64,000 nt of DNA from an uncultured Thermoplasmatales archaeon (GTDB taxonomy: Archaea; Thermoplasmatota; Penumbrarchaeia; Penumbrarchaeales; Penumbrarchaeaceae), in NCBI GenBank assembly GCA_963807965.1, contig CAWEDU010000017.1, positions 207,452 to 271,451 of the forward strand. The letters run 5' to 3'. Both the position numbers and the translations under genes were made by a program. A model generated the notes under the pieces. That model searched no databases. It was not told the origin of the DNA and worked only from the letters and a program-made list of their open reading frames with translations. Of the stretch, positions 5,861 to 56,025 are shown one piece after another; position 1 is the first letter of the stretch; each line of letters starts with the position of its first letter.

Positions 5861-5861
5861 T

Positions 5862-19586: not shown

Positions 19587-19638
19587 GACTTCCCCAACAT
19601 TCCATAAAGATGTTAAAATATATAAAATCGAACAAATA

Positions 19639-31363: not shown

Positions 31364-32909
31364 ATGGACATAGTATTGCTATTGATATTTGCGGTCCTGC
31401 TCCTTTTGGGAGTTGGGATAGTGGCGGTGATCATCTATGCTGCGAGGTACAAGAAGGTACCCCCGGACAGTGCGATGGTCGTCTATGGTAGAGGAGCAAA
31501 GAAGGGTGCAAGGGGTTACTCAGTTGTATCCGGAGGAGGCAAGTTCATCCTGCCAGTTGTGCAGGGTTTCGATTTTCTTCCTCTTGATGTCAGGACCCTG
31601 GAGATCTCGGTGACAGATATCGTTACGGATGTCGTGACATCCGGTGCCCAGATGAACATCAAGGCCGTTACCCAGGTCAAGATAGCATCAGATGAGGCAT
31701 CATTGTACACAGCAGCCGAACAGTTGTTGCACAAGACCGACAAAGAGATCAATGAGATCGCCCAGAAAACCCTTGAGGGACATGTCAGGGGGATCTGTGC
31801 GACGATGACCATCGAGGCCATCAACTCGGATAGAGATGCAGTAGCATCCCATGTTCAGTCCCAGGCCGCAAAGGACCTGAGGAACATGGGTATCGAGATC
31901 AGGTCCTTCGTAATTAGAGATATTGAGGACCAGTATGGATACATCAAAGCCCTGGGAAGAAAGAGGACCGCCGAGGTCAAGAGGGATGCAAGGATCGGTG
32001 AGGCCATTGCCAACAAGGAGGCGACAGTAAAGGAAGCAGGGGCGGCAAGGGAGGCCGAGAGGGCCAATTCCGAGGCTGAAGGTCAAGTGGCCATCTTCCA
32101 CAAGGAGAGAGATATCACTAAGCAGAATGCCGAGGCCGAGGTTGAGATCTCCAAGGCAAACAGATCCATCTCCTTCGATCTCCAGGACAAGAAACGGCGC
32201 CAGGAACTTATCAAGGAGCAGATCCAGATCGAGATAGAGGAAAAAGTCAAAAGGATCGAACTCCAGGAAAGGGAGATAGATAGGAAAGGCAAGGAGCAGG
32301 AAGCGATCCAGGTGGTCCCTGCCAAAGCTGCTGCAAATGCCAAGATTGCCGAAGCTGATGGTGAAAAAGGTAGGATCGAGAGAATAGCTGAGGCCGAAAA
32401 GATCAAGACGATAAGAGCAGCAGAGGCTACCCAGTCCCACCTCAAATTGACAGCAGACGGTGAAAGGGAGAAGCTTGAGAAACTGGCTGAAGGTCAAGCT
32501 GCCAAGATCCGTCAGGAAGGAACAGCTGAGGCCGAGGTTATCCAGTTGAAGGGACAGGCCGAAGCCGAAGCCATTAAGGCAAAGGGTCTGGCAGAAGCAG
32601 AGGCAATGGAGAAGAAGGCACTTGCGTGGAGAAAGTGACGGTGATGCTGCAATAACCCAGCTCATAGTCGATCAGCTGCCTAACATTGTGAAGGCAGCAG
32701 CCTCATCACTCGAAGGAGTGGATAAGGTCATAGTCATGGGCGACCAGGGACCTAACGGATTTGTCAGCAAGACCGTGGACATAGCCGCACAGATGCCTGC
32801 ACTGGTGGAATCTCTGACAGGTGTTGACGTGACCAAGCTGATAAGGAATGTCGTCACCACCAAGGAAGAATCCGGGCAGGTGGATGTGGAAGCAAAGGAC
32901 GCGAATTGA
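31364..32909 (+). CDS. floT: Flotillin (SPFH/band-7 family, FloT/YuaG-like), frameshifted near 32628-32640.
   Basis: N-terminal TM, SPFH domain, then a long A/E-rich coiled coil. ORF 32622..32909 encodes the conserved C-terminus (YGDAAITQLIVDQLPNIVKAAASSLEGVDKVIVMG). AAGTGACGG versus AAGTACGG joins AWRK-YGDAA. Confidence 0.75.
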
Positions 32910-38519: not shown

Positions 38520-40677
38520 CTACTCGATCCTTACTCTACAGTCAACTGCAACAGCTCCTTTCTCTGATATGAAAAGCGGATTGATCTCGATATCGGTGAT
38601 CTCATCAACCTGAAGCATCACATCACCCAGAGCCTTCAGTGTTATTGCGATCTTTGACCTATCGGCTTCCTTCTTTCCCCTGAATGCCCCGAGTAGTGCC
38701 TTGCCCCTTATCTCGTCCATCATCTCCCTGGCATCCATCTCAGAGATGGGAGCAACCCTGAACGAGACATCGTTCATGGCCTCTACCATGACCCCACCGA
38801 CACCGAACATCACCGCAGGTCCGAACACCCTGTCCCTGATCGAACTGGCAATGACCTCCCTTCCTGTCAACTGGTCCATGACGATTATCTTCTCTGACAT
38901 GGGTTCCAGCTTCTCATAAGCCTCCACCAGTTCCTCTATGTTGTCAATATCAATGATGACACCACCCCTTTCGGTCTTGTGGATAAGGTCAGGGGAAGAA
39001 CCCTTCAGGACCACCGGGAAACCGATCTTCCTTGCAGCCTTAACGGCTCCGTCAATAGAATCGACCACCGAATATTCACACATCTCAATTGGTCCTGATT
39101 TTAGGAATTCCAGTGATGTTTCCAGGTCCATGAAATTGTGACCTGCCTTTCTTGTCCTGTCTATCAGCTTTTTTATCGCTTTCAGGTCCCATTTCTCCAT
39201 GGGAGGAAGGTCCAGTTCCCTGGTGTTCTTGAACCGCTTGTATCTGTAGAGGACCTCCAGAGATGAGACGGATTCCTCGGGGAAATAGAAGGCAGGTAAC
39301 CCTGCCTCGTTGAAGGCCCTGATCTGGACATCCGCATCCCGACCACCGATGTAGCACAGAACAAGTGGTTTCTTGGGGTCCTTCATGGCCTCTATCAGGT
39401 CTTTTGTGAACTTCTCCACATCGATCCCTGAAACAGCTCCATATATGCCAATGACCGAACCGATGGTTGGTTCGTTCATTGCCTCTTTAAGGCATTGGAT
39501 ATAGTTTTCCGGGGGAGTTTGTGCAGTGATATCCACGGGATTTGAAAGTGATGCAAATGGTGGAAGGAGAGGGCCGAGTTTCTCTGCGATCCATTCAATA
39601 TTATAGAATAAGAGGAAGCCCTGACATTCCCAATTCATCTATTGCGAGTATACCGAAACCACCACCGTTCGTTATCACAAGGCATTCTTCCAGCTCCGGA
39701 AGTGGAAGATCGTTCAAAGCCCTTGTCCAGTCTATTGCTTCTCTAAGTGTGGGGGCTCTTATAGCACCCGCCTGTCTGAATGCAGCATCGAAAAGTGAAT
39801 CCGCTCCTGCAAGGGATGCTGTGTGGGATGCAACTGCCTTGGCCCCTGCTTTGGATCTTCCGGATTTCAGGATGATAACTGGTTTGATCCTAGAGACCTT
39901 CTTGACCTTCTTTATAAACTCCCTTCCATCTTTGAGGCCCTCGATATACATCAGAATGATCTTGGTATTCTCGTCACCACAGAGGAAATCAAGGATCTCC
40001 TCGTCTGAGAGGTCCGCCTTGTTACCCACGGATGTAAGGGCGGAAACACCGATCCCCTCCTGAAAGACCCGGTCCATAAGGGCGATGCCCAGGGATCCTG
40101 ATTGAGTGATAATGGCAACATTCCCCTTAAGGACCATCTCGTTTCCGAACTGGGCATTGAGGTTTACGGGGGTATAGATCATCCCGAAGACATTGGGACC
40201 CAGGATCCTGATGTTCTGTTCCATTGCGGTCCTTTTGATCTCTTCTTCCAGATCGTAGTTTCCTATCTCTTTGAATCCGGATGAGATAATAACAACGAAT
40301 GGAACTCCCTTTTTTCCGCATTCGATGAGTTCCTGATTGACGTACTGTGCCGGGATACATATGAGGGCCAGATCGATCTCCACAGGAACATCTCCAATGT
40401 CCTTGTATCCCTTCTGTCCGCAGACATCTTCCCCCTCACGATTGATAGGGAACATGCCTCCCTCAAACCCTCCATTGACCATATTGTTGAATGTCTTGAA
40501 GCCAATTTTCTTGGGATTATCCGATGCTCCGATGACAGCTACATTGCGGGGTCTGAAGAACCTCTCCAGATCTGGAACCTTACAGGAATCTTCTTCCATG
40601 ACCGGGGAATGGTATGGTATTTTATAAAGAGATTGCAGGGGTACTGACCAAGTAGTGTCTGCTTTTGATCGTGACAT
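38520..40677 (-). CDS. acd: Fused alpha/beta ADP-forming acetyl-CoA synthetase (NDP-forming acyl-CoA synthetase), frameshifted near 39601-39640.
   Basis: ORF 39601..40677 has the CoA-binding and succinyl-CoA-synthetase-like domains (VAVIGAS, GVPFVVIISSGF). ORF 38520..39638 continues with a ligase-CoA region and an ATP-grasp beta domain. The two ORFs overlap by 38 nt in different frames. Confidence 0.75.
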
Positions 40678-40804: not shown

Positions 40805-43800
40805 TTGATTGATATGAGTGCGTTGATAACAAAGACGTTTTGCCTTTGGGTGGCGATCTTTCTGGCCTTTCTGGCCGGAATGACCCCCTCAGGTACGGCG
40901 TCAACGGGAGCAGGTCCCTGGACCGAAGAAAAGGTCCTTGAGGAGGGACTTGACCAGGAACCTGCTCCCAGAAACATGTCACGGGGGGACCTTCTTCTTG
41001 CAGAAAGTGAGGAGGTTACCATCCATGGTAATCTGACCTACCGGAGGGCATTGTTGGGGAAGGATTCCATTCTGAACCTTGAAGATTGTAATCTTACCCT
41101 AATAGGGGACGGGAATGAGATACCCTCAATAACCGGTCACCCTTCCACTCTTGCACTCATCAATTCAAGCATAATCCTATCAGGAATGGATGGATCCTCA
41201 AAGATAAGGAGCGCTGGTTCCAATGTCTCATTTGATCTGAATGTCACATCATCCTTCGAAATGCTCAATTCCTCCATCTATCTCAGAGGAGGTGAAGGAT
41301 GGACTAAAAGTGATCCTGGAGCTCCGTTTTCGACTTCGCTTTCAGGTTTCGAATTTTCGGGAGGCAATTCAAGCTTCACTCTCCTTGGTGAAATTTCAAC
41401 CAACATAACAATAGTGGATTCCTCAATAGAGTTGTACGGAGGTTATGGAGGAGATGCTGCCGACGGAGAGGACCTGGATTCCGATGATTTCCATCTGTCC
41501 GGTGGTTATACCACCGGTGCAAATCTATCAGGTAAGGTGGGTTCCGGAGGGGGAGTCTCCATGTCATTCAATGCCCCGGGAGCTGTCATGTACCTCTCGA
41601 ATTCCAGTTTCTGGCTTGAGGGTGGATGGGGAGGGATGGCTGGCAATGCAGGGGGTGTTGTCTGGGATGGGGAAAAGACATACACCCATCCCACGACTTC
41701 AGGAGGATACTCCTCGGGAGGATGGAGCGAAGGAGAACCCTTTGATCCGGGGACTGTTAGCGGTGATGTAGGGTCTGGCGGTCATACTTCACTGGAGATC
41801 CTTGTTGATGATCTAACAATGATGGGATGTCGCCTGTCCCTTGGTTCAGGTGGAGGGGGAAGATCCGGAGAAGGGGGATATTGCATCTCTGATGTGACCG
41901 GAAACCCCGGGACAGCTACCAATACCCTGGGAGGTGGAGGAGGGGGCAGTTATGCAGGAGGATATGGTGGTTATCAGATGATCATTGAGTGGGACGGAGG
42001 GGATGGTGGTAAGATCATGGACCGTGTCGCCAGAGGTGGTGATTCCGAGGTAATGATAAACTGTACCAGATGCATCTGGATGGAGGATAATTTCATTGGA
42101 TGCGCGGGTGGTTCAGTATGGAACCCGAACAGAGGAGGTGCAGGGGGTGGTGATTTGTCATTGGTTATTGATGGAGGTGGTGGAGGAGGATCCGGATATT
42201 CTGGTGGAGGCGGTGCTTCCGCAGAAATGCTTTGTACAATTCAATGAAAGGAGGATCTCCTGGCTGGATCGGCCCTGATGTTGGAGATGCCGGTGATTAC
42301 AAGGTCAAACTTACAGCTCCAATGGTAATGGCCAGGGGGAGAACTGAGAAATATCTCTACGGCGGGATCTCGACCGGTACCTCAGATGTAAACGGGAAGA
42401 GCGGTGAGGTGTCCGCCATGACAGAATATCAGGGGGGAGAAGGAGGAACCGGTTTGGAAAAGGGAAAAAGGGATGGAAGTGGAACATACAGAGGTCCTCT
42501 ACCCGCACCATTTCCGATCTATCCGTTGGATGGTGAGATCATCACGGATCTTTCCGAACCATTCGAATGGTGCCCCCTGGATACAGGCTATTATCCTGCT
42601 TCAGGAAATGAGTTCACCTTCAGATTGACAGGATCTTTGAATATCAATGATGTTATCCAGGAGTTCAATGTAACATCGCTTTCAACTTCCCTGATGGATG
42701 AGATCGAGGATGGTCACTATTACTGGACTATCAAACCCCACAAGGGAAATGCAGTAACCACCTGGATGAAACCCCAGCTTTTCACAGTCGACCGTACAGC
42801 TCCGGTAGTTCTTTCAGGTCCGGTATTTCCATGGGTTCCCTCCTCGGATCCGGTTTGTAATGTGAGATACATCGAGAACTTGACAGGTCTGGATCCGGAT
42901 TCGGTAATGGTAAGGTACGGTCCCCTTGAGGGGCCATTCGGGGAATGGTTCTCAGCAAATACCATTGAAGAAGGAAATGGAATTCATTCCGTTGAGGTGG
43001 TCCTCCCCTCAGAAGAGAGCAATTATACCTTCTATGTCAAAGCTTCGGACTGGGCAGGAAACGGTCCTATCCTTGCAGGTCCTTATTTCATCGGAGTTGA
43101 CGGATCACCTCCTTTGATAGAGGACCTTACACCTTCTGGCTGGACCAATACTTCATTCCATCTCTCTTTCAGATCCTCGGACCGTTTATCAGGTCTTTCC
43201 CGTAACTTCACATTGAATATTCAAGGTCCTTTTGGAAGCACCATCAAAGATATCCTTCCAGAGGAATATGAGGGGGGCCTTTTCAGAACCATTGGGTCTT
43301 TTCAACTTGAAGAAGGTAACTATACCTTCGAGCTTGTCACAAAAGATGCTGTCGATAACCTCGGAACATCCGGACCGCTTTCGGTCCTTGTTGATGGGAG
43401 CTGTCCGATATTGATGGCTTACACTCCAGCTGATGGGGCTATATTCAACGATCCCTTACCGGCACCCTTGATCAAGGTTGTGGATAGATTGAGCGGTCCT
43501 CTGATGATGGAGTATCATCTGGAAGGGCCTTCAGGAATATTCGATCTGAGGTACTTCGATCTGCTTGATACCGTTGACGTGAACATAGGCCAGCCTCTTT
43601 CCGAGGGGAATTACACCTGGTATGCGAATGCATCTGACCAGGTTGGGAACAGAATGTCCGCAGGTCCTTTCCATTTCATGGTGGATATGACACCGCCGAT
43701 CGTCGAGGTTTTAGGAATCGAAGAAGAAAACACCATTATGATCCACAGTAATGATATTCTCACCGGATTGGAAGAGGCCGAGGTCAGATGCGAGATACCG

Positions 43801-45279
43801 GGAAAGAACGGATGGATAGAGGTCTGGAAGGAGACCATGGACCTCATTCCGGGACCTCCACAAAGTGACTATTCATTGAATATTGAACATACCATTCCTG
43901 GACCAGTCTGCTACCTGTCAGTCAAAGGTACGGACCAAGCGCAGAATATTGGTGATTGGTCCTCCCGGACCAGGATAAACGGACCCGGTTCTGAACTGAA
44001 CATTTATATTGAGATCCCAAGTGTGGTCGGAGCAAATCCGCTGTTAGAGGTCAAGATGGACCTGCCTCTGGGGGTGGACATCTCATCAGTTTCCATGAAG
44101 CTCGAACCCGGCCTTGGTACCATAGCGGTCCTTAAACCAAGATCATTGGAGGTCCTGACCAATTCAACTCCGATCCAGGGATCCGATCTCCTGGTCCCAT
44201 CGAGGGTCAAAGCAGCATTTCAGGTCCCGTTCGATGAAGGTGTATTCGAGGCCTGGATAACATTCAGGGATGGATTGCCACTTCCGGTCGAGAGGATATG
44301 GGGTCCTCATTCCCTTACAGTTGACGGGGAATCACCTCTCATCGATCTGGAGGCAGACCCCTTCTATACAGAGGTCCCCGCAAGGGTGACCTTCGATGCA
44401 AGCGATAAGACATCCGATATATCCATGATGGAGATCTCTGTTGGCGGGGGGGAATTCGGACCTTTCGATCTGCCAGGAGCTCCGTCACTGCATCTAAATG
44501 AAGCTGGGAGTTCATGGATCATGGTGAATTTCTCGTACGGACCCGAAACCGAAATAATTGTAAGGGTCCTCGATGAAGCAGGAAATATGGCAGAAGGATC
44601 GGTGACCACCAGGGCAACGAGACCTCCTTTCGTGAGCATCGAGAGGTCATATACAGGAACAGTAGTTTCCGGAGAGGAATTTCAGCTCACTGCGGACTGC
44701 CAGGACCCTGAGGGTGATATCCTTTCATTTTCATGGTATGTGGATGATGTCCCTGCAGGTACAGGAGAGGTCCTCTCCCTGGTCCTTGAGAACGGGACCC
44801 ACCGGATCGTCCTGAACTGTTCAGATGGAGACCTTTTCGTCCAGAAAGAGATGATGATCATTGCAGAAGGACCTGCAATTGAATTGGAGGAGAAACAGGG
44901 TTCACAGGAGAAGGGTCCTGCTTTTCTCCTAGTTGCAGGTATGATCGTTTCCATTCTTGTCATGGCTATGATCTCAGTGATCCTGGTCCTCTGGAGGAGA
45001 GGGGATAGATCTGATGGCGATGAAGAGGATGAGGAAGTTTGGGGTGATGGGGACTCGGTCAAGACAGGGAGGACCGGTGAAGGTCTTCAAGATGACATCA
45101 GTAAATCGAACGGGGAAGATATCGGTATCCACTGTGATATCTGCCTGAGAAGGTTATCAGGAAGCTCCAGGACCGTGAAATGTAGATGCGGAGCACAATT
45201 CCACAGAGCCTGCGCTTCCAGGGAAGGGGAATGTCCCGAATGCGGAAGGGAGATAATGCTCCCATCCGATGGCATATAG
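40805..45279 (+). CDS. Giant (~1490 aa) single-pass surface protein: signal peptide, beta-helix-like NxS/T-rich region, Gly-rich region, multiple Ig-like (DxAGN) domains, a PKD-like domain, a TM helix, and a cytoplasmic C4HC3 zinc-finger-like tail. One frameshift lies near 42235-42247.
   Basis: Signal peptide MSALITKTFCLWVAIFLAFLAGMTP. GG(Y/S)GG-rich region from 41400 to 42450. The second ORF starts at TTG with an open upstream frame, so it is treated as a continuation. Repeated TxP..DxxGN modules. The TM segment AFLLVAGMIVSILVMAMISVILVLW is followed by RRGDR. The tail reads HCDICLRRLSGSSRTVKCRCGAQFHRACASREGECPECG. Confidence 0.7.
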
Positions 45280-45297: not shown

Positions 45298-48200
45298 ATG
45301 ATCATGTATCTCCGGGAAAGAACAGGGGGGATGAAAACGGGAAAACGAACCACCTTGGTGATATCACTCGTAATCATGTTATCTTCACTTTCAGGTCTAT
45401 TTCTCATTTCAGAGGGGGTTGAAGGTGTATCCAGAAGCAGCTCTGCTATTCATGATGCTGGCAATTTCACAATAGAGATCGATGATGATGGCGGAGCCTC
45501 CGCTTGGTCATAGATTGGAATTCCCGAAGGGAGCTGACAGGCTGTGATAATGCATATTTCGGGATCGGGACCGGTCCAGATTCTGTCGATTTCGGAGAAC
45601 ATGATGAATTCCATACCCTTGATCCTCTTAACATCTCCATCCCCGGGAACTACACTGATGAGGAAGGATACTGCTCCTTCACAGGCTGGAACGGTGAGGA
45701 TTTCGAGGGGGTCAACATCACACAGAGGACCTTTGTAAATCGTTATATCGAGAATACCAGGGGAAACACAGGGAGATGGATGGTCATAGACTACGAGATT
45801 GATTCACCCGTTGAATACCTCTCTCCTATCTACATTATCCAGACAATGAACGTGGACCTCGGAGCTTCCGCAACTGATGACAAGTTCTCCTTCATTCCGG
45901 AAATAAACACGACCGTCATATCCGACGGGACCACATTCGTGGGTCTCGGCTTCTTTGACCTATCAGGTTCTTCCTACTTCAACGGGCATAATGCTGGTGT
46001 TTACGGTCCCGGGGTATATTCAGGTGAGAATGAGGTCTGGGATCAGATGTCAACACCCAACAATCAGACCTCCTCGGTCACAGGACAGGACTGGTACATG
46101 GATATCTCGGCCAAGGTCCCTGAAAATGAGACCGGCAATCCTTTCCATGTGTCCTTTGCGGTCCTTGTAGGTTCTTCAATATTCGATATCAAAGCCGCTT
46201 ACAACGATGCGGTTAACGGCCTCAAAGGATTCTGGACAGGACCATGGCTTCCAAACTGGTCGACCGGAATGGTTGAAATGGAGTTCTCCTACGAAGGTCC
46301 TTTCTTCCCCCCTGCCTCAATGGATCTGAACCTCCAAAAAAAGGAAGGTGGAGGACCATGGGAGAATATCGGCATCGTCCACCCCAATATCATACCAGGA
46401 TCCCTAAATGCCTCATACTTGCTGAATACGACCGAACTCATACCGGATTGGGGTTCTATCTCATGGACCATGGATTCCAATTCCAGGTTCGGTTTCAGAG
46501 ATATGAACGATTCAGGCATATTCAAGGTCGATAACAAGGGCCCTGACACCTCAATGCTTGCCATCAATGACGATCCGACTGGAACCCTTACCATCCTGAC
46601 CAACGCCGGGGACAGGGGAGGGTCGGGGTTATATTCCACATTCATGTCGGTGGACGGTATCTACTTCATTCCATCCCAGCAAATGGAATTATTCGATGAT
46701 GGAACCGATTTCGATTTCTTTGCTTACACCGTGGACATAGCAGGAAATCAGGGTCCAACGGTCTCACTGATCGATCAGGTGAATGACGGAACAGCCCCCC
46801 AGATCAATCGGTTCACCTTGGAACCCCTTGAGATCGACGAGAACACAGATGTTCCGGCCACAGTGATATTGAAAGCTTCCGATGCAACTTCCGGAATAGA
46901 TACTTCCTCTGCGAAGATGAGGTATGGCATCACCACACCTACTTCTGAATGGATCCAGATGGACCTTCTCGAAGGCAATTTCACTTCTTCCATAGACCTT
47001 GATTGGGATGCCCTGCAAGGATCTGAACTTGCAGTCAAGGTAATGATCTCAGATATGCCTAGGAAATTCCAAGGATATGACGATCAAGGAACTGATAGAT
47101 CCGTTGAACGATCCTCCTGAATTCTCGATATCCCTCTCTGGAGAAAGATGGTCCTCAGAAGATATCGGAATATCACTTGAAGGGGCGGATCCGGACGGTG
47201 ACGATGTCACCTTCTCTTTCGATTACAAACTCGGGAACGGGAACTGGAAGGATGTCCCTCCTACCTCACTTGAAGAGACCGATCCATATCATTTCCTTAT
47301 TGACGTCCCCAGGGAGGATTTCGAGGGACTTCTGCAGATCCAATGCACTGTGGATGATGGAACAGACCAGGTTCCATTGCCAGTCGTTTCCAGGGATATC
47401 GATATGAAACCCCCATCAATAGAGGTCACAGGGCATCCGGGAACGGGTTGGACGACATCAAAACCAAGATTGAAGATAAACTCAACGGACAGTGGTTCCG
47501 GTATTTCGATCATGGGATTCATGGTTGAAAAGAAAGGAGATTTCGAGTTCATACCTGGAAATGAGATCGGTCTGAACACCGAGGGTCAGTTCAATGTAAC
47601 GGCAATGGTCGAGGACAAGGCTGGAAACACCAGGTCCATTGCTCTCGACCCGATGAGGATCGACCTCCATTCTCCTGTTATAAGCAATATTACACTTCCT
47701 GTGAAGGACAAAGCTCCCGGAGATGACCTATCCATTGAATTCAAGGTTTCCGACACATTGGGTTTCGATCTGGTAAAGGTGGTGCAGGACCCGTCTCTCT
47801 ATATCACATCCTATATCCTGTCCGGGGGAACGGTCCTTTCCACAGGATCAATAATTCCGATCCAAGAGTAATTCATTCGAAGCCTTCTTCGAAGATCCAT
47901 TCACAACTGAGATCAAGGAATATTCTGTCAGGATAGATGTAACAGATGAGGCAGGCAACAAGGATGAATATGAGTCCCCCAAGACTGAATGTTTCGACCC
48001 CTTTCATCGAGGAAGAACCCCCCTTCGATATCGAATTCCCGGAAAAAGTGGTCCTGGCCGAGGATCTCAAGATAAACATCACCTGGGAAGGTCCTCTGGT
48101 CCTGGAGGCAATGTATCCAGGCACACTCATATCCTGGATCATCACGGCTGAGAGGACCTCGGGGAATGAAAGGACCTACGATCTTCCAGGGACATATTCG

Positions 48201-48773
48201 AACGGTGATATTCAGTTCAAGGTCCATTATGGTGAAGCTGGATCAGATGAGGTCAATATGACCTATCCCTCGGATTGGTATCGTATCAATGTTACAGGAT
48301 GGATCGATTCTGACGGGGACCTGCTTTCCAACGCCTTCGAGTCCAGACATGGTTTGGACCCCTTCGTCCTGGATGATATCGAAGAAGATGAAGACGGAGA
48401 TGGTCTGAACCTTCTGGAGGAGATGTACAACCTGACCGATCCCGATGAAAAGGATTCCGATGGGGATGGGATCAACGATGGTTGGGAAGCCGAGATGGGG
48501 ACCCTCCCATTCAGGAACGACAGGAATGAGGATCCAGATTCTGATGGTTGGTTCAATTTCAAGGAATTCGATGGTGAGACCGATCCCAGGGACCCCGAGG
48601 ACCATCCCGAGGAACCTCCGGCAACCCAATGGTACTGGATACTCCTTATCGTGTTGGTCCTTCTGGGGATCATTGGATATTTCCTCTGGCAGACAATAAA
48701 CCGACGGAAGCTGGAGGACGACCTTGAAGCAATGGATGAGGAGATGAGCTGGGACCTCTCGAAAGGAAGATGA
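45298..48773 (+). CDS. Second giant surface protein: signal peptide, Ig-like DxAGN domains, Asp-rich Ca-binding-type repeats, and a C-terminal TM anchor. It is disrupted by at least 4 frame changes (near 45500, 47050-47110, 47871, 47930-47990); it is either frameshifted or a pseudogene.
   Basis: The chained ORFs are 45298..45513 (signal peptide MKTGKRTTLVISLVIMLSSLSGLFLISEG), 45504..47120, 47077..47871, an unlisted Met-less frame 47873..48150 (VRIDVTDEAGNKDE), and 47946..48773 (DSDGDLLSNAFE...DEKDSDGDGINDGWEAE...DPDSDGWFNFKEFDGETDPRD, TM WYWILLIVLVLLGIIGYFLW). Each piece opens where the previous one closes. Confidence 0.5.
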
Positions 48774-48927: not shown

Positions 48928-49944
48928 ATGCCACAGAACGACCAGGAGTTCATGCAGATCCTGAATATAATCCGGAGAGGTCAGAAGCTTGTCCTCCAAG
49001 CAAAGAAGGAGGGAGCCGAGATCCAAATGGCAGAGGAACTCATCAACGAGGCAAAATACGCCTTGAAGATCGACAAGAGGGAGGAGGCCGTTGACTATGC
49101 CAAGAAGTGCATAGTCGAGGTCATCAGGGCAAAGAGGGAGATGGATACCGAGAATTTGACCCATGAGGGTGCCCTTGAGAAGCTCACAAAGGAGGAGCTC
49201 AGGCAGAAGTGCAAGGAGCTCGGCCTGGAATCCCTTGGACTCAAGTCTGATCTGGTGGAAAGGATCAAGGAACGGCTTGTGGAGATGAAAGGAACTCCAC
49301 CACCGATCAATGAAGAGAAGGTTCTGGAGGAGGTCTTGCCCCCTGAACCGGAACCAGAGGTACCTAAAAAGACCGTTCAGGATAAGGCCGCCCCAACCCC
49401 TCCTGCCAACGGTGAGGTAACCGATGGTGTGGAAGCTCTCACCAAGAATGCTTGGAATCCAAAAAAGGCGGCAAAGGAGCTGACACCGGGTCTCTCATAT
49501 CTGATAGAGGAGAAAAGACCAGAACGGCTCTTTCACATTTACAAGGCCCTGAAGGAGATGGGAATGGAGGGAATAATTATCTCCAGGACCAACTCGAAGA
49601 TCCTTGCGAGGACATATGGTGTCAACGAGAAAGAGACAGTATGGCTGACCGGCAAGGAGATCGAAGGTGAGATCCGATCTGTCCTTCCGATCCTGGAATT
49701 CATCATGTCCATTTACGAGGAGTTCATGGAAACCACCGGTAACGGGGTCATTCTCCTTGATGGTCTCGAATATCTGCTCACAAACAACAAGTTCAATTCC
49801 GTTCTTAGGTTTATCAGGCAGCTTGTGGACAATATCTCACAGACAGAATGCATCCTCATGGTTGCACTTTCACCGGACGCACTGGATTCCACAGAAGTGA
49901 CGCTTCTTGAGAAGGACCTTCTCCCGATGAACTACATCGAGTAG
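48928..49944 (+). CDS. SAP-domain protein with a C-terminal DUF835-like domain.
   Basis: SAP motif LTKEELRQKCKELGLESLGLKSDLVERIKERL. An acidic/Pro linker follows, then a region that fits DUF835 from memory (tentative). Confidence 0.5.
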   Translation: MPQNDQEFMQILNIIRRGQKLVLQAKKEGAEIQMAEELINEAKYALKIDKREEAVDYAKKCIVEVIRAKREMDTENLTHEGALEKLTKEELRQKCKELGLESLGLKSDLVERIKERLVEMKGTPPPINEEKVLEEVLPPEPEPEVPKKTVQDKAAPTPPANGEVTDGVEALTKNAWNPKKAAKELTPGLSYLIEEKRPERLFHIYKALKEMGMEGIIISRTNSKILARTYGVNEKETVWLTGKEIEGEIRSVLPILEFIMSIYEEFMETTGNGVILLDGLEYLLTNNKFNSVLRFIRQLVDNISQTECILMVALSPDALDSTEVTLLEKDLLPMNYIE

Positions 49945-50690
49945 TATCCTACATTCTGAAGGAAAGCCTTCTCAAAGGACCCATATATCTCTTTGATATT
50001 CACTGTATTATCAGTTATCATTACTTTGCCTTTGTTGATGATGGCTACTCTGCCACAGAGCTCCTCAGCGAGTGACAGGATATGGGTGGATAGAAGGATA
50101 GTACCTCCATTTCGGGCATATTCCAGAAGATGGTCCTTCACCTTTCGTTGATATATGGGGTCCAGATTGATGAATGGTTCATCAAGAAGTAGTAGCGGAG
50201 GCTTATGGATGAATGCAGATGACAGCATCAGCTTCTGCCTGGTTCCCTTTGACATATTCTTCGCAATGGTCTGTCTATAGGATCCCAGATCGAAGAAGTC
50301 CACCCATTCTCTCTTTTCGTCCTCATCCTTTTCCCTTCTTCTGGTATCCATGACGAAATCAAGGAACTCATCAAGTTTGAGGAAAGATGGGGGTGTTTCA
50401 GATTCGGGAACATATCCCGTGAAAGATTTTATCCTCAAACTTTCGGTGGAAGGGTCCATTCCAAGGATGCCGATCCTTCCCCGATCCGGTCTTTCAGTTC
50501 CGATCAGGGATCTCATCAATGTAGATTTTCCGGCACCATTGGGGCCTATCAATCCGAAGATCTCTCCTCTTTCAACCTGAATGTTCACATCGTCCAGTGC
50601 CTTCAATTGGCCGAAGGACTTGGATATACCTTTTACAGAAACGGCAGGGCCGTCCCTTTCGGGAGGATCCCATCTGCCTCCGTTGACCAA
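49932..50690 (-). CDS. ABC transporter ATP-binding protein with no adjacent permease gene. Its start abuts the stop of the C11 peptidase gene.
   Basis: Walker A GPNGAGKST, ABC signature LSKGTRQKL, Walker B LLLLDEP, H-loop STH. Confidence 0.8.
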   Translation of the reverse strand: MVNGGRWDPPERDGPAVSVKGISKSFGQLKALDDVNIQVERGEIFGLIGPNGAGKSTLMRSLIGTERPDRGRIGILGMDPSTESLRIKSFTGYVPESETPPSFLKLDEFLDFVMDTRRREKDEDEKREWVDFFDLGSYRQTIAKNMSKGTRQKLMLSSAFIHKPPLLLLDEPFINLDPIYQRKVKDHLLEYARNGGTILLSTHILSLAEELCGRVAIINKGKVMITDNTVNIKEIYGSFEKAFLQNVGYYSM

Positions 50691-52490
50691 TTATTCATTC
50701 CTCCCCCGGAATATTACAACTCCCAGGATAAAGGCAGCGGCAATGATCAGGATCAAGAACGCACTGATGAACCATTGAGGTATCTTGAAGTCCTCTGCAT
50801 CGCTCCTTTCTCCCCCCTGGATGGTTATCTCAGTATGAACAATGCTTGTGGACTTACCCACATTCCCGCCAGTATCTGATACAGGTCTATCGAAAGCTCT
50901 TACCTCAATGCGGTGGGTCCCCAGTCCCAGTAATTCGGAATTCATCTGGTGGAGGAAAGGTATCTTTCCCTGTCCGGATATACCTGGCATGGTGGTCCAT
51001 TCTCCGTTGTCAACTCTTACCTCGACACGGTCGACCATCTCCCTATCGTAGGCGACACCCCTCAGGATTATTGTACCTTCATCAAGAGGGAAGGTCGTAT
51101 TGAACTGAGGGCTGGTTATTGTTACCGTGGGATCTGAATCTTCTATTGGGTCTATTCCATAGTAGGAATGGAGGAATTCATCCCACAGATGCTCCCTTGC
51201 ATAGGATGTCTCCTCGTAGGAGAGGAGATAATTGGTCGGGAGTTGAGTAATGGAAAGGGAATCCTCATCCTTGTTTGGAAAATACATGGAAAGTCCATTT
51301 GCCTCCGGATGCCATTGATCCGCTTCGGATGCAAACATGAATCCCTCTCCCGGAATGTCACTGGTGATGGTTTCCCTCACTTTTGCAGTGAGTTCCTGGA
51401 TCATATTGTTCTTGGGGAAAGCATCTGCAATGTACTGGTCAAGGTATTCTGTGAAATCAATGATATCATAGAGGGGATAGCCAGTCAGATCATAGACGAA
51501 AACATTTGCCATATCGTATGAGTTGCAGTTCTTCCTGGCCTGATATATCTGAAGAAGGTATTCCAATCCCCCGAGGGGGCCCTTAGAACCGAGTTCTTCC
51601 GAGAACTCGTCCAGTACTGCTACGACCTCGTCCATGAGTTCGAGATCGAACGCTGCCTGGGTGACCATTGGGTAATCCTGCGGGTCCTGCTGCTTGTTGT
51701 TATAGGAGTAGATGTATTCATGGACTATTATTGCTGCAAATTCCTTCTCATCCATTCCGGGCTTCTCCGTCAATGGTCCCAGGACCTCATCATAGGGCCA
51801 ACCGTCACCGGGCTCATTGTAACCTGAGCCAACACCGACTTTAACGAAATCCTTGAGCTCATACATGACAGCTACCTGTGCCATAAGACAGGCATCGAAT
51901 CCCCAAAGGTCCATCTTACGATTTCCCAGGACCTTGTAGATCTCTTCAGCAGCATAGTTCACATCCGACATGTTCAGGGCATCATACTCTCCTTCGGGTA
52001 GATCAGGGACAGTATCATCAAAGCATACACCTCTGAAAGCTCCACCATGGTTCCATAATATCAAGGCATATTTCTGTGCGGGATAGTTCTTGACGGACCA
52101 GGAAACAAAATCGATCAACGTTTCAGGGTCGCCCATATTCACTTCACCGAGCCTTCCCTGTTCAGGAGAAGTGATGGTGTCCCTGTCGAGGTCCTTTTCT
52201 ATGTAGAATCTTCGGCAATCATCCCAGTCCCCATTCGTGGAATCATAATCCCTTATCCGGTCCATCTGGACAACAATGTTCACATCATCCGTGGAACCGA
52301 ACTCCTCCATTTCGTTCATATCATCGATCCCTGCAGCCTCCAGATTGTTGTCGGCATCCAGGTAGACCATGAAAGTCCATTTGGGGAGCTCATCCTGCCC
52401 TTGGGTTGGTTCCAGGAAGGGAACCATGGATAGAAAGAAAAGTGAAACGGCGAATATCGAGATAAGCGAAGTTGCCTTCAATGGGTGCAT
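50691..52490 (-). CDS. Clostripain-family (C11) cysteine peptidase with a signal peptide, an Ig-like domain and a C-terminal TM anchor.
   Basis: FMVYLDADNNLE, His region ILWNHGGAFRG, catalytic Cys region WGFDACLMAQ. Signal peptide MHPLKATSLISIFAVSLFFLSMV. C-terminal TM segment WFISAFLILIIAAAFILGVVIF. Confidence 0.8.
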   Translation of the reverse strand: MHPLKATSLISIFAVSLFFLSMVPFLEPTQGQDELPKWTFMVYLDADNNLEAAGIDDMNEMEEFGSTDDVNIVVQMDRIRDYDSTNGDWDDCRRFYIEKDLDRDTITSPEQGRLGEVNMGDPETLIDFVSWSVKNYPAQKYALILWNHGGAFRGVCFDDTVPDLPEGEYDALNMSDVNYAAEEIYKVLGNRKMDLWGFDACLMAQVAVMYELKDFVKVGVGSGYNEPGDGWPYDEVLGPLTEKPGMDEKEFAAIIVHEYIYSYNNKQQDPQDYPMVTQAAFDLELMDEVVAVLDEFSEELGSKGPLGGLEYLLQIYQARKNCNSYDMANVFVYDLTGYPLYDIIDFTEYLDQYIADAFPKNNMIQELTAKVRETITSDIPGEGFMFASEADQWHPEANGLSMYFPNKDEDSLSITQLPTNYLLSYEETSYAREHLWDEFLHSYYGIDPIEDSDPTVTITSPQFNTTFPLDEGTIILRGVAYDREMVDRVEVRVDNGEWTTMPGISGQGKIPFLHQMNSELLGLGTHRIEVRAFDRPVSDTGGNVGKSTSIVHTEITIQGGERSDAEDFKIPQWFISAFLILIIAAAFILGVVIFRGRNE

Positions 52491-52665
52491 CCTCCTTTTA
52501 TTGATTACAACTCCGGTAATGATATAATCTTTATGGTCATGGGTATGAACAGTTACTCCTGAATATCAAAGAAATCCGAACATTAGATATACGTGTGTAC
52601 GATGAAGGTAAAAAAGAACAGGAGGGAGTCCCCTGGAAGAAGCAATCTGCCATATCGAGATAAGC

Positions 52666-52815
52666 ATGGAGGACGATGAGATCGTTGCAAAGCTCCAGAG
52701 TGACCTTGGAGGGATCAGGGAGTTCAGGTCATTGACCTATGAGCAGGTCCTGAAATTGGTGGTCAATGAGCTTCAGGAAGAGCTGGAGTTCAATACAGAA
52801 CATGAGGTCGAGTGA
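52666..52815 (+). CDS. Possible small acidic protein (49 aa) in the 16S leader region.
   Basis: ATG-to-TGA ORF reading MEDDEIVAKLQSDLGGIREFRSLTYEQVLKLVVNELQEELEFNTEHEVE. It is below the track's size cutoff and has no further support. Confidence 0.2.
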   Translation: MEDDEIVAKLQSDLGGIREFRSLTYEQVLKLVVNELQEELEFNTEHEVE

Positions 52816-52852
52816 GCATATCTGGACAGTCCTCTGTTCCATTCGGAAATGT

Positions 52853-52947
52853 TTTTATATCAAATCAATATTAGCAGGTTTCCCCCAGGGGGTCATTGAC
52901 CCATCTGTGGGGAACTTGACCTCACTTATAATAAGGGTTATATATTC
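52853..52947 (+). promoter_or_regulatory. Candidate archaeal TATA-box promoters for the 16S rRNA gene.
   Basis: GAAATGTTTTTATAT (52847-52861), then CTTATAATAAGGGTTATATATT (52925-52947), about 225-320 nt upstream of the mature 16S 5' end. The stem-loop CCCCCAGGGGG sits between them. Confidence 0.35.
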
Positions 52948-53112
52948 GACCTTGTTTAAGGGGGTCTTACCCGCAGCCATTTGCGTTGTTCCGTGAGACG
53001 GTGTATTGCCTCAGATGATCGGAACCATCCAGGCCCGCGGACATATGAAAGGGGTTGGAGAAACCCGGAGAAATCCGTGACCTCTCCTATCCGACATACG
53101 ATGAAAGTGATA

Positions 53113-53131
53113 CTTGAGCGAATCGAACGTT
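53113..53131 (+). other. 5' half of the 16S processing stem (pre-rRNA excision helix, BHB-type). It pairs with 54683..54700.
   Basis: CTTGAGCGAATCGAACGTT is nearly perfectly complementary to AACGTTCGGTCGCTCAAG at 54683-54700, bracketing the 16S. Confidence 0.55.
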
Positions 53132-53169
53132 GTGTGCAGGAAGATGGAAAGTATATTTCTCATCTGCCA

Positions 53170-54647
<1,478 letters not shown>

Positions 54648-54682
54648 AAGAAATTAACCTTATTGGATCCCTACGATCCATT

Positions 54683-54700
54683 AACGTTCGGTCGCTCAAG
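54683..54700 (+). other. 3' half of the 16S processing stem.
   Basis: Complementary to 53113-53131. Confidence 0.55.
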
Positions 54701-54717
54701 CACTTAATTCATCGTAT

Positions 54718-54744
54718 GCCGGAATGAAACCCCTTTCTTTTTTC
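54718..54744 (+). terminator. CGGAATGAAACCC motif followed by a T-run; a putative rRNA terminator or processing element (copy 1).
   Basis: GCCGGAATGAAACCCCTTTCTTTTTTC. The same core recurs at 54941-54966. Confidence 0.35.
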
Positions 54745-54940
54745 TTTGATTTACAAAAGAATCAATATGAGATTCGTAAATCAAAGTGCGCTTAATGAGA
54801 TGTAGAATTGTCGGTCTAATTAAGTTGGACCTTCACATCTGTGATGTGGAGGGCAGGAAAAAACCGAAACTGAAAGTTGTTTTTTCCTATGATCTCGAAC
54901 TTCTGATTCAATGAATTATTAACGAGAAGGAGTTACGAGG

Positions 54941-54966
54941 CCGGTCGGAATGAAACCCTTTTTTTT
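54941..54966 (+). terminator. CGGAATGAAACCC motif followed by a T-run (copy 2).
   Basis: CCGGTCGGAATGAAACCCTTTTTTTT, 220 nt after copy 1. Oligo-T is the archaeal termination signal. Confidence 0.35.
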
Positions 54967-55011
54967 ATTTAATAAGAAAAGGTCCTTCATTGATACTTCG
55001 TATCAAGATAT

Positions 55012-56025
55012 TCACCTACCTTTTATAATAATCACTATCATCGCTATAATCAGAATTGCTATGATTATCAATGAAACAAGGATGAGGATCAATATGATCC
55101 TCTCACCACTTTTTTCAACCTCATAGCCGTTCCTTTCAGGGTCCTCGGGATAGTTATCCAGTTTCAACCCGGTCCTGGAATCATCCATGTCCCTTCCATC
55201 GTTCCAGCGGTTGGGATATCCGTCTCCATCGATATCGACACTTGCGGCCCAGTCATCGGGAAACGCATCCAAAGAATCCTCGACATTATCGTAATCTCTA
55301 TCATTAAAATATATATATTTTTCAAGGATCTCGATCTTTCGAGAGATTTTTTCCGTCTCGAAATCACCATCACTGACCCACATTGAAACACTCTTGAATC
55401 CTTTCTTTGAATATGTGTGGGTAACGTTCATGCCAGTAGTGGTGGCTCCATCACCGAAGTCCCAGAAGTAGGTCAATCTATCATCATCAGGGTCCTTTAC
55501 ACTGGAAACGGAGAACTCGATCTCGTCACCCTCATATAGATCCGTGGACGGATCGGGGTAAATGTAGAATCTATCAGGTTTTTCCGGAGGGCTGTTTTCA
55601 ACTGTAACAATGATCACCAGTTGAACATCATCGATCCTTGTCGAGTTCTCCACTCTCAAGGTGAGATTGCAGATTCCCCAGGTATCCTCCCACACCTCAA
55701 CAGATGCTATCCACCGGTCCTCTATTCTGAGTATATTCAGGTTGAAGAAATCCATCTTAATGAAGGACTGCCATCCATTGATGTATTCATTGAAGATCAT
55801 GATAGAATAGATTTTGCCGATACTTCCGTTGAACATTCCCTTCGGTCCTGTTAAATAGAATTCAATTTCTCCATCCCTGTCCCGGATCAACGGAGGACCT
55901 TCCCAGTCGGAACTGATCGAAATTCTATTCTCGGTAGACTCCTCAGTTCCTTCCGAACCTCCTGTGAAAATTATTGAGATCGATCCAATATTAAGAAGTA
56001 CCGAGATTGCGATTTCTCCTCTCAT
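55012..56025 (-). CDS. Secreted PKD-domain protein with a C-terminal TM anchor.
   Basis: PKD block TYFWDFGDGATTTGMNVTHTYSKKGFKSVSMWVSDGD. C-terminal hydrophobic segment IILILILVSLIIIAILIIAMIVIII. Confidence 0.75.
   Translation of the reverse strand: MRGEIAISVLLNIGSISIIFTGGSEGTEESTENRISISSDWEGPPLIRDRDGEIEFYLTGPKGMFNGSIGKIYSIMIFNEYINGWQSFIKMDFFNLNILRIEDRWIASVEVWEDTWGICNLTLRVENSTRIDDVQLVIIVTVENSPPEKPDRFYIYPDPSTDLYEGDEIEFSVSSVKDPDDDRLTYFWDFGDGATTTGMNVTHTYSKKGFKSVSMWVSDGDFETEKISRKIEILEKYIYFNDRDYDNVEDSLDAFPDDWAASVDIDGDGYPNRWNDGRDMDDSRTGLKLDNYPEDPERNGYEVEKSGERIILILILVSLIIIAILIIAMIVIIIKGR

Follow-up and report, generated by a model that had tools for sequence, protein, structure and literature searches.

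Gene organization at the locus

The window analyzed in this work is a 64,000-nt stretch of DNA from an uncultured Thermoplasmatales archaeon most closely related to a MAG of class EX4484-6 ('Ca. Penumbrarchaeia'). Two plus-strand ORFs in different frames, 40805..42247 (480 aa) and 42232..45279 (1015 aa), were found where a preliminary description had placed them, overlapping by 16 nt. The first opens with TTG at 40805, and the ATG at 40814 (MSALITK...) agrees with the orthologue start. That both ORFs belong to one gene (40805..45279, plus strand), as first proposed, is strongly supported by sequence comparison: a single-ORF orthologue of 1443-1487 aa is present at six related loci (sizes given: 1487, 1481, 1480, 1475 and 1443 aa), and one of these loci, L001, is 87.3% identical to the window across 11.2 kb (blastn). 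Against the closest orthologue, the lesion that splits the gene is an insertion of two bases rather than the 1-nt indel first suggested, with an equal effect on the frame, and deleting 42229-42230 gives a single 1490-aa ORF reading ...GGGGASAEILYNSMKGG... where the orthologue reads ...GGGGASAELLYNSMKGG.... Features of the gene, and of one gene downstream, are collected in Table 1.

Table 1. Positions in the window of the features of the putative adhesin gene and of a downstream neighbour
Feature	Coordinates	Strand	Basis or description
Start and signal-peptide-like N-terminus	40805..40903	+	Judged from sequence and orthologue start
Predicted right-handed beta-helix, residues about 60-560	40982..42486	+	Spans the frame break
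Two extra bases relative to the orthologue	42229..42230	+	GAAAT[GC]TTTGTAC vs GAACT--TTTGTAC; splits the gene into two ORFs
About seven Ig-like modules, ~100 residues each	42499..44610	+	Pfam Big_13 (E 5.1e-9), Big_3_3 (3.3e-7), DUF7743 (0.008)
PKD-like module, membrane-proximal	44680..44865	+	Pfam PKD and PKD_4, weak (E 0.018-0.026)
Predicted single TM helix AFLLVAGMIVSILVMAMISVILVLW, residues 1372-1396	44920..44994	+	Hydropathy scan, 2.84
Acidic, predicted cytoplasmic linker, 33% D/E	44995..45132	+	Conserved Trp in EEDEEVWGDGD, plus G-R-T-G patch
RING-like C4HC3 finger, 37 residues	45133..45243	+	C-x2-C-x12-C-x-C-x4-H-x2-C-x6-C-x2-C
Conserved C-terminal extension G-R-E-I-M-L..., then stop codon	45244..45279	+	
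SAP and DUF835 (inactivated KaiC) protein	48928..49944	+	Pfam DUF835 (E 4e-26), SAP (7e-9)

The simplest and most likely reading of the frame break is an assembly error, since at least eight further breaks hit three other genes of the window, for a total of nine in four genes. The gene is therefore probably intact in the cell, and split ORFs in this stretch of the assembly are not to be taken as separate genes. Fairly unlikely, in our estimate, is a real break that makes the gene of this strain a recent pseudogene or the source of a secreted 480-aa beta-helix fragment, with no tail made. The public record has the break too, with a 100%-identical 1011-aa protein called from the second ORF only, and the 2-nt lesion in a non-repetitive context is unlike a classic homopolymer error. 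The breaks are also unevenly spread, seven of the nine falling within 38.5-48.8 kb and five in a single neighbouring surface-protein gene; the latter cluster is suggestive of decay, and the unevenness could reflect local strain heterogeneity or true decay of surface-protein genes. Conserved metabolic genes of the same window are broken as well, however, among them an ADP-forming acetyl-CoA synthetase gene (intact at locus L007, 692 aa) and a CrtI-like desaturase gene that is read in three frames, and wherever a break could be set against a reference, it is the window that has an additional base. Purifying selection in both halves of the gene (dN/dS vs the orthologue, 0.15 upstream and 0.19 downstream of the break), together with orthologues that are intact without exception, likewise argues against a real break. 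Three further explanations were rejected: two separate genes, as the conserved Gly-rich stretch of beta-helix in which the break lies runs uninterrupted through all orthologues; programmed ribosomal frameshifting, as 42170..42247 holds no X XXY YYZ site and all orthologues are in frame; and phase variation, as no repeat lies at the lesion.

Ectodomain and membrane topology

The product is predicted to be a type-I membrane glycoprotein with a cytoplasmic tail, an assignment strongly supported by hydropathy and inspection of the sequence, which give a signal, one TM helix on the C-terminal side and basic residues after it. The signal peptide of the preliminary description corresponds to a hydrophobic, signal-like N-terminus with its core at residues 11-26 (40835..40882). 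N-x-S/T sequons number 24 against 8.7 expected, and every one lies in the ectodomain, before the TM helix. The tail is placed in the cytoplasm because RRGDR follows the helix (positive-inside rule) and no sequon lies beyond it; the helix and the acidic tail behind it are as originally described.

The N-terminal region is sequon-rich first, and its G content then lies at 20-38% between about 41402 and 42456 (residues about 200-550). Its structural model (pLDDT 80.8) matched beta-helix adhesins as a parallel beta-helix, in agreement with the earlier reading of a beta-helix-like, sequon-rich N-terminus; the Gly-rich region was rightly noted, and lies inside the predicted beta-helix rather than forming a region of its own. 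Polysaccharide lyases and phage tailspikes share the fold, so that a role in adhesion is suggested by the fold rather than read from it directly. Residues 565-1350 form about eight 100-residue modules, including the PKD-like one, whose DPEGD...W...DG...G pattern is kept in orthologues. The module count agrees with the roughly eight DxAGN-type Ig-like modules proposed earlier; DxAGN-like motifs end five of them (DWAGN, DAVDN, DQVGN, DQAQN and DEAGN, at residues 748, 847, 944, 1043 and 1256, with ~100-residue spacing).

Sequence and predicted fold of the C-terminal finger

RING fingers are chiefly associated with eukaryotic ubiquitin ligases, of which they are the hallmark; what is known of their prokaryotic relatives comes mainly from sequence analysis. 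The tail of the present protein reads HCDICLRRLSGSSRTVKCRCGAQFHRACASREGECPECG, with ligand codons at 45133, 45142, 45181, 45187, 45202, 45211, 45232 and 45241. The ligand pattern reported in the preliminary description was confirmed; it is unique in the window by six-frame scan, and its eight ligands plus thirteen non-ligand residues are invariant among seven orthologues. The finger is far beyond chance, since 154 of the 198 fingers found in relatives share exactly its ligand spacing. Among orthologues the tail is 56-90% identical, vs 29-84% for whole proteins, and dN/dS is 0.09 for the finger and 0.32 for the linker. The acidic-Trp motif of the linker was found in 17 of 85 TM-class finger proteins, essentially the orthologous group; G41, R42 and E43 of the extension are invariant in all seven orthologues, and the wider family keeps G in 69%, R/K in 58% and L/I in 63%.

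The tail was predicted to fold as a beta-hairpin plus helix (pLDDT 81.8), in agreement with the cytoplasmic, zinc-finger-like tail of C4HC3 order first described. The best 50 Foldseek matches of the model were all RING structures (TM-score 0.55-0.69), with PHD structures ranking lower. Prok-RING_1 and zf-RING_2 were the top Pfam profiles for all seven orthologue tails (Prok-RING_1 best E 2.6e-6). Prok-RING_1 (PF14446) scored 26.9 bits with the tail and 26.5 bits with the 51-aa finger, below the curated cut-off of 29.1, which four relatives pass (P0062, 34.0 bits; P0128, 33.0; P0018, 40.1; P0030, 50.9); its alignment runs just from position 3 to 41 of the 54 in the profile, leaving the last zinc loop of six residues unmatched. 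NCBIfam holds no model for the tail. A RING-superfamily fold, with a predicted cross-brace and two predicted zinc sites, is strongly supported by these models and profiles.

The PHD/RING-CH class proposed at first was not borne out. RING-CH fingers have C-x-C-x7-H and a last loop of 11-25 residues, vs C-x-C-x4-H and six residues here. In PHD fingers the Cys pair ahead of the His is spaced C-x(2-4)-C, the last loop spans 12-46 residues and a conserved Trp precedes ligand 7, where the present finger has C-x1-C, six residues and E-G-E; the C4HC3 ligand order is shared with PHD fingers, as are the four residues that separate the fourth Cys from the His. It is highly improbable that the tail is instead a nucleic-acid-binding zinc ribbon tethering DNA or RNA to the membrane. 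The name of one cluster member in IMG, 'predicted nucleic acid-binding Zn-ribbon protein', is an automatic annotation, and the finger does contain nine Arg/Lys; its net charge is nevertheless only about +2, behind a strongly acidic linker, and the predicted fold is a cross-brace RING.

Distribution of finger-tailed surface proteins

Relatives of the finger were collected by exhaustive HMMER search; a word-indexed protein search returned nothing from the 139-aa tail and nothing from an alignment of 58 fingers. At least 240 clusters (50% identity) were obtained at E<=1e-3, and wherever members are named, their source is a Thermoplasmatota or Thermoplasmata MAG. Of 149 representatives, 85 have the finger behind a TM helix (median gap, 41 residues), and in 59 of these 85 it forms the extreme C-terminus. 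Ectodomains of the finger-tailed proteins include PKD, Big_13, cohesin, CARDB, LamG, NosD/beta-helix, cadherin-like and FG-GAP domains. Among the 50 soluble relatives, the partners fused to the finger are FHA, TPR, LacI-HTH and zinc ribbons; certain soluble matches may be eukaryotic RING-H2 proteins and not relatives (P0035). Current labels of members are 'hypothetical', 'PKD' or 'DUF2341'.

A family of surface proteins with intracellular tails, as the preliminary description envisaged, is thus represented by a large set with the same tail. The companion that it named, a J-domain protein at 5862..8129, is real and combines Ig-like domains with a TM helix and an HPD-bearing DnaJ domain. Of the suggested novelty in archaea, the part concerning the domain class fell away, as the prokaryotic C4HC3 RING class has been known since 2011 and is not new to archaea. 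The part concerning architecture and abundance stood: in the literature on prokaryotic or archaeal RING fingers, no description was found of this architecture or of its abundance in Thermoplasmatota. A RING subfamily of fixed spacing is a common cytoplasmic tail of surface proteins across an archaeal phylum, and standard annotation mostly misses it (Pfam score under the cut-off, no NCBIfam model).

Assessment of ubiquitin-ligase function

A true RING E3, recruiting an E2-like or other Ubl carrier and tagging itself or neighbouring membrane proteins, is quite unlikely, and we infer that the finger is not a ubiquitin ligase. The predicted fold is nearest to RINGs solved in complex with E2 (RNF125, TRIM21, TRAF6 and RNF165), and two sequence features point the same way: an Ile/Val two residues past the first Cys, invariant in the orthologous group and kept in 87% of the family, and a Pro after the seventh ligand, kept in 89%. 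At the third E2-contact position, in the helix, the orthologous group has instead an invariant Glu; we take this position to be that of the E2-contacting Trp408 of c-Cbl in canonical RINGs. Only six residues separate ligands 6 and 7, and the 'linchpin' position directly after the last Cys is Gly.

The order of ectodomain, TM helix and RING parallels that of eukaryotic TM-RING ligases (PA-TM-RING, ZNRF3/RNF43, MARCH), and some prokaryotic RING families are found in operons that contain E1, E2, JAB and Ubl genes (PMC7159879). Here, however, no E1, E2, Ubl or JAB gene adjoins the finger genes among the called genes of related loci or the scanned neighbours in the window, and tblastn with UBE2D2 and ubiquitin gave no match in the window plus ten related loci (about 170 kb; best E 0.22). 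Ubiquitin-system domains are likewise absent from the 50 soluble relatives, and the tagging for which Thermoplasmatota are known is of the E2-independent SAMP/UbaA type.

Proposed role and candidate partner

The explanation that we prefer, to which we assign roughly even chances as a whole, is a membrane adhesin with a cytoplasmic, zinc-stabilized docking finger, possibly with a DUF835 partner. The layout itself is strongly supported: outside the cell, a predicted beta-helix 'head' of a kind known from bacterial and fungal adhesins sits on a stalk made up of about eight Ig/PKD-like modules; one helix anchors the protein in the membrane, and the acidic linker leads to the RING-fold finger inside. 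The finger is most likely a zinc-stabilized docking module common to many surface proteins of the phylum, through which the cytoplasmic end of the adhesin would bind a soluble partner, and this binding would either couple surface events to the cell interior or hold the adhesin in place. A signalling or partner-recruitment device, as suggested in the preliminary description, is in keeping with this proposal.

More speculatively, the partner may be an inactivated-KaiC (DUF835) protein, for which the SAP-DUF835 protein encoded two genes downstream is a candidate. This gene holds the same position relative to the adhesin gene in five loci (the window, L001, L005, L008 and L010), and in three relatives (P0065, P0123 and P0128) the ectodomain and TM helix are followed by the finger, a zinc ribbon and DUF835, in that order. 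These belong to one fusion family only, so the fusion of finger and DUF835 is probably one evolutionary event. Synteny around the adhesin gene also extends to unrelated opposite-strand flanks (ABC ATPase, C11 peptidase) and may therefore reflect general conservation of gene order, not an operon. A general rule of finger-DUF835 neighbourhood was rejected, as L006, a locus of a finger-tailed protein, has no DUF835 neighbour. Extension of the proposal to a hitherto undescribed outside-in signalling or anchoring system of Thermoplasmatota, in which unrelated ectodomains share one C4HC3 RING plug that docks on DUF835 adaptors, some with a DNA-binding SAP motif, is considered unlikely.

We think it similarly doubtful that the fingers bind each other, with soluble tandem-finger proteins cross-linking the tails into a cortical lattice that would cluster or immobilize the surface coat of a cell that has hardly any wall or none. 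RING domains often dimerize. A six-frame motif scan found no tandem-finger gene in the window, however; the conserved surface of the finger could equally bind a non-finger partner, and the soluble proteins on which the lattice would depend may include eukaryotic RING-H2 matches such as P0035.

A docking role for the finger, if true as in the preferred explanation, would offer a way to study how these little-known, uncultured sediment archaea link their surface coat to the cell interior, and would present an 'ectodomain-TM-RING' layout outside eukaryotes and outside any ubiquitin system. Docking on DUF835 proteins, if true, would mean that archaea use, independently of ubiquitin, a receptor-TM-RING layout that is otherwise familiar from membrane E3s of eukaryotes.

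Comparison with known systems

The predicted beta-helix matches the adhesins EtpA, HMW1, FHA, pertactin, Vag8 and Candida Awp1/3 in fold, at sequence identities of 7-14%. To our knowledge, the two-partner or autotransporter secretion apparatus is absent from archaea. Prok-RING_1 (PF14446), reportedly the prokaryotic RING finger family 1 described by Burroughs, Iyer and Aravind in 2011 (Mol Biosyst 7:2261), shares the C4HC3 order and is the best profile for all seven orthologue tails; the adhesin finger differs in scoring below the cut-off, in lacking nearby ubiquitin-system genes and in forming the tail of a giant surface protein. The C4HC3 ligand order is typical of prokaryotic RINGs (review, PMC11354881). 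The RING E3 of the Caldiarchaeum subterraneum ubiquitin operon (C3H2C3) is likewise an archaeal RING-fold finger, a small soluble RING-H2 protein whose gene is accompanied by those for Ub, E1, E2 and a deubiquitinase (PMC11354881); the adhesin finger has another ligand order, a membrane tether and no such operon.

DUF835 is an inactivated KaiC and a response-regulator output domain in Methanomicrobia and Thermoplasmata (Galperin et al. 2018, PMC5847659). In comparison with these signalling proteins, three relatives are membrane receptors whose cytoplasmic side combines the finger with DUF835, whereas the adhesin itself contains no DUF835 domain. Eukaryotic TM-RING E3s (RNF13, GRAIL, ZNRF3/RNF43 and MARCH) have the same order of signal peptide, ectodomain, single TM helix and cytoplasmic RING, and ZNRF3 is among the weak sequence matches of the tail (E 0.025). 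MARCH fingers have the C4HC3 ligand order in common with the adhesin finger, which lacks their RING-CH spacing, and we know of no E2 in the archaeal lineage of the adhesin. The ectodomains are unrelated, and the likeness to eukaryotic TM-RING E3s is one of layout only and is not taken as common descent of the architecture.

Reconstruction of the RING-tailed gene

The surface-protein gene appears in the window as two ORFs in different frames that share 16 nt; their coordinates, like the spacing of the tail finger, agreed with the preliminary description. The two ORFs are one gene, as had been proposed there: every related locus fetched from genomes and metagenomes holds a single unbroken ORF, of 1487 aa (L001 and L002), 1481 aa (L004), 1480 aa (L005), 1475 aa (L008 and L009) or 1443 aa (L007). 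Both ORFs are likewise spanned by the longer relatives P0002 (1487 aa, 84% identity), P0003 (1475 aa, 52%) and P0007 (1443 aa, 29%), and a public protein of 1011 aa matched the second ORF at 100% identity. In an 11.2-kb alignment of the window with L001 (87.3% identity), the frame break corresponded to two extra window bases, GAAAT[GC]TTTGTAC against GAACT--TTTGTAC; the lesion, initially taken for a 1-nt indel, thus has the supposed effect on frame but a different size. Deletion of 42229-42230 gave a 1490-aa ORF reading ...GGGGASAEILYNSMKGG... where the orthologue has ...GGGGASAELLYNSMKGG.... Against the orthologue, dN/dS was 0.15 before the break, 0.19 after it, 0.32 in the TM helix plus linker and 0.09 in the finger. 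A programmed frameshift was ruled out because no slippery heptamer was found at the break site and the shift is not conserved in orthologues.

Nine frame breaks were found in the window, across four genes. Besides the RING-tailed gene these are the next gene downstream, encoding a second giant surface protein (its L001 orthologue has 1156 aa and, besides TSP3 repeats, a TM helix and an acidic stretch as a short tail); the divergent upstream gene for ADP-forming acetyl-CoA synthetase, a single 692-aa protein in L007; and a CrtI-like phytoene desaturase gene whose GxGxxG N-terminus, middle and C-terminal Amino_oxidase part occupy one frame each. The spread of the breaks is uneven (7 of 9 lie at 38.5-48.8 kb, and the genes at 48928..52490 are unbroken), as might be produced by strain heterogeneity in this region or by genuine decay of the surface-protein genes, an explanation we consider improbable. 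Two of the four genes encode conserved enzymes and all breaks comparable with a reference are insertions on the window side; assembly error is therefore the simplest reading of the break at 42229-42230.

Features of the window and of related loci
Feature	Locus	Position	Strand	Remarks
DnaJ-tailed surface protein	window	5862..8129	+	755 aa
Squalene/phytoene synthase	window	17308..18132		intact; adjoins CrtI-like desaturase
CrtI-like phytoene desaturase	window	about 18110..19600	-	three frames
Band_7	window	31364..32638		424 aa
ADP-forming acetyl-CoA synthetase	window	38520..40677	-	ORFs 39601..40677 and 38520..39638; one extra base near 39609
RING-tailed protein, first ORF	window	40805..42247	+	480 aa
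RING-tailed protein, second ORF	window	42232..45279	+	1015 aa; other frame than first ORF
TM helix	window	residues 1372-1396		followed by RRGDR
Acidic linker	window	44995..45132	+	33% Asp/Glu
Second giant surface protein	window	45298..48773	+	four ORFs; single extra bases at 45509, 45550, 47068, 47867, 47984
SAP + DUF835	window	48928..49944	+	two genes downstream of RING-tailed gene
SAP + DUF835	L001	9278..10294
SAP + DUF835	L005	10448..11461
SAP + DUF835	L008	9654..10667
SAP + DUF835	L010	6884..7903
Clostripain-family (C11) peptidase	window	50691..52490	-	Big_7 domain
Stretch of ~2.5 kb	window	52490..55012		no ORF of at least 150 aa
Band_7/SPFH	L005	6198..6857		219 aa
Band_7/SPFH	L008	5408..6067		219 aa

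Anatomy of the rebuilt protein

The rebuilt protein has a signal-like hydrophobic core at residues 11-26 and 24 N-x-S/T sequons (8.7 expected), all N-terminal to the TM helix. Residues 1-473, modelled with AlphaFold2 from eight homologues, were all-beta from residue 61 (pLDDT 80.8, pTM 0.77), and the Gly-rich stretch (residues about 200-550, 20-38% Gly, invariant columns mostly glycines) is, by this model, part of a predicted beta-helix. About eight modules of ~100 residues fill residues 565-1350, five of them closed by a DxAGN-like motif, with Pfam matches to Big_13 (E 5.1e-9), Big_3_3 and, weakly, PKD. The acidic linker contains a single conserved Trp in its Glu/Asp run, plus a G-R/S-x-G patch. 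The Trp motif was present in 17 of the 85 relatives in which a TM helix precedes the finger (the TM class) and is kept throughout the orthologous group, which has both motif and patch; most other finger-tailed proteins are without them.

Fold and family of the finger

The pattern C-x2-C-x12-C-x-C-x4-H-x2-C-x6-C-x2-C lies within the final 50 residues and occurred once in 64 kb in a six-frame regular-expression scan. The top Pfam profile for the tail was Prok-RING_1 (PF14446; E 4.6e-6), at 26.9 bits under a curated cut-off of 29.1 bits, followed by zf-RING_2, and the ranking was the same for 7/7 orthologue tails; PDB sequence searches returned weak RING-H2 matches only (e.g. RLIM, EL5, Pirh2). 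Structure prediction supported a RING fold, for which two zinc ions per chain would be expected; the outcome that would have refuted the preliminary description, a tail with no predicted zinc-binding fold, thus did not occur. The preliminary description had seen in the tail the ligand order of PHD/RING-CH fingers; a RING-type zinc-finger fold is indeed predicted, but the spacing fits neither PHD nor RING-CH, judged against the consensus patterns of these two classes.

An exhaustive profile search with the finger against 1.84 billion representative proteins gave 240 clusters at E<=1e-3, of which 33 reached E<=1e-10, and architectures were counted in the 149 top-ranking representatives in which a finger could be detected. 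In 85/149 the finger comes after a TM helix (median gap 41 residues), and in 59 of the 85 it forms the extreme C-terminus. Lengths range from 91 to 4891 aa, with several fingers in 16. The ectodomains of the TM class include PKD, Big_13, cohesin, CARDB, Big_7, LamG, NosD/beta-helix, cadherin-like and FG-GAP domains. The TM helix was missing in 50/149. Other domains of soluble members comprise FHA, TPR, LacI-type HTH and further zinc ribbons; P0018, P0030, P0035, P0011 and P0058 carry tandem finger arrays (up to five copies, as detected with the orthologue profile) or a finger joined to FHA (P0011) or LacI-type HTH (P0058), although P0035 may instead belong to the eukaryotic RING-H2 proteins and not be a true relative. 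Spacing was identical to that of the studied finger in 154 of 198 family fingers, with the consensus [KR]-C-x-[IV]-C-[LFM]-G-x-[IV]-K-x-G-x3-[VI]-[KR]-C-x-C-G-x2-[FY]-H-x2-C-A-x-R-[VE]-G-x-C-P-x-C-G-[RK].

A search for the same tail in other Thermoplasmata had been suggested, and many surface proteins do carry it; all source-named members come from Thermoplasmatota or Thermoplasmata MAGs, where they are labelled as hypothetical, PKD-domain or DUF2341 proteins, and no NCBIfam model for the tail was found. Narrow patterns located four genome loci, every one of them from Thermoplasmatota; the closest is a MAG labelled EX4484-6. For this class the name 'Ca. Penumbrarchaeia' has been put forward, and its members are described as degraders of protein in sediment that have extracellular C11 peptidases (PMC12220078, a study that also describes protein-amended enrichments); the C11 peptidase gene of the window agrees with that account.

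Function of the finger

No part of the protein is more tightly constrained than the finger, in which 13 non-ligand residues are invariant among orthologues with an overall identity of only 29-84%, a pattern that fits a specific binding surface. Invariant residues of the tail include R21, F26, R28, E34, G35 and G41-R42-E43. Action as an E3 ubiquitin ligase would be compatible with the predicted fold, with Ile/Val at position three, conserved in 87% of the family and without exception in the orthologous group, and with Pro after ligand 7, the seventh Cys/His ligand (89% of the family). However, no E1, E2, Ubl or JAB gene adjoins the RING-tailed gene in those related loci for which genes were called, nor is there one among the scanned window neighbours, no E2 or ubiquitin match was obtained in about 170 kb, and ubiquitin-system domains were fused to the finger in 0/101 relatives. 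The finger also has Gly at the linchpin position, a very short last loop and, in the orthologous group, an invariant Glu at the helix position that corresponds to the Trp with which c-Cbl contacts E2. From this evidence against ligase activity, together with the constraint on the finger, a ubiquitin-independent docking role is therefore favoured, at about even confidence; we infer that the finger would offer a docking surface to a specific partner.

One candidate partner is a DUF835 protein. The membrane receptors P0065, P0123 and P0128 have the order ectodomain-TM-finger-zinc ribbon-DUF835, and the SAP-DUF835 gene occupies an equivalent place with respect to the RING-tailed gene at five loci (window, L001, L005, L008 and L010). 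DUF835 is an inactivated KaiC domain that serves as a response-regulator output domain in Methanomicrobia and Thermoplasmata (PMC5847659). The lead is concrete but weak, because the fusion is known from a single family, the synteny also keeps unrelated opposite-strand genes, and L006, the locus of another finger-tailed gene, has no DUF835 neighbour. In L005 and L008 a Band_7/SPFH gene lies between the RING-tailed and second surface-protein genes; it is missing from that position in the window, which has a longer Band_7 gene elsewhere.

Comparison with known systems

The suggestion in the preliminary description that surface proteins carry folded effector tails in the cytoplasm holds in the window for two different tails, since the DnaJ-tailed protein combines ectodomains (fn3, Big_13, Big_5, CarboxypepD_reg), a TM helix, then RRKKR, and at its C-terminus a DnaJ domain that has HPD. 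Its ORF as assembled lacks a signal peptide; the upstream sequence is AT-rich (GC 0.335 in 4001-6000) and stop-laden. In the literature we found no description of the fixed-spacing finger subfamily, of how abundantly it forms the cytoplasmic end of surface proteins in Thermoplasmatota, or of a link between the finger and DUF835. The domain class itself, prokaryotic RING, is already known, and C4HC3 order is typical of it (PMC11354881); the tail is, on the predicted structure, a RING-fold finger close to Prok-RING_1 yet outside its cut-off.
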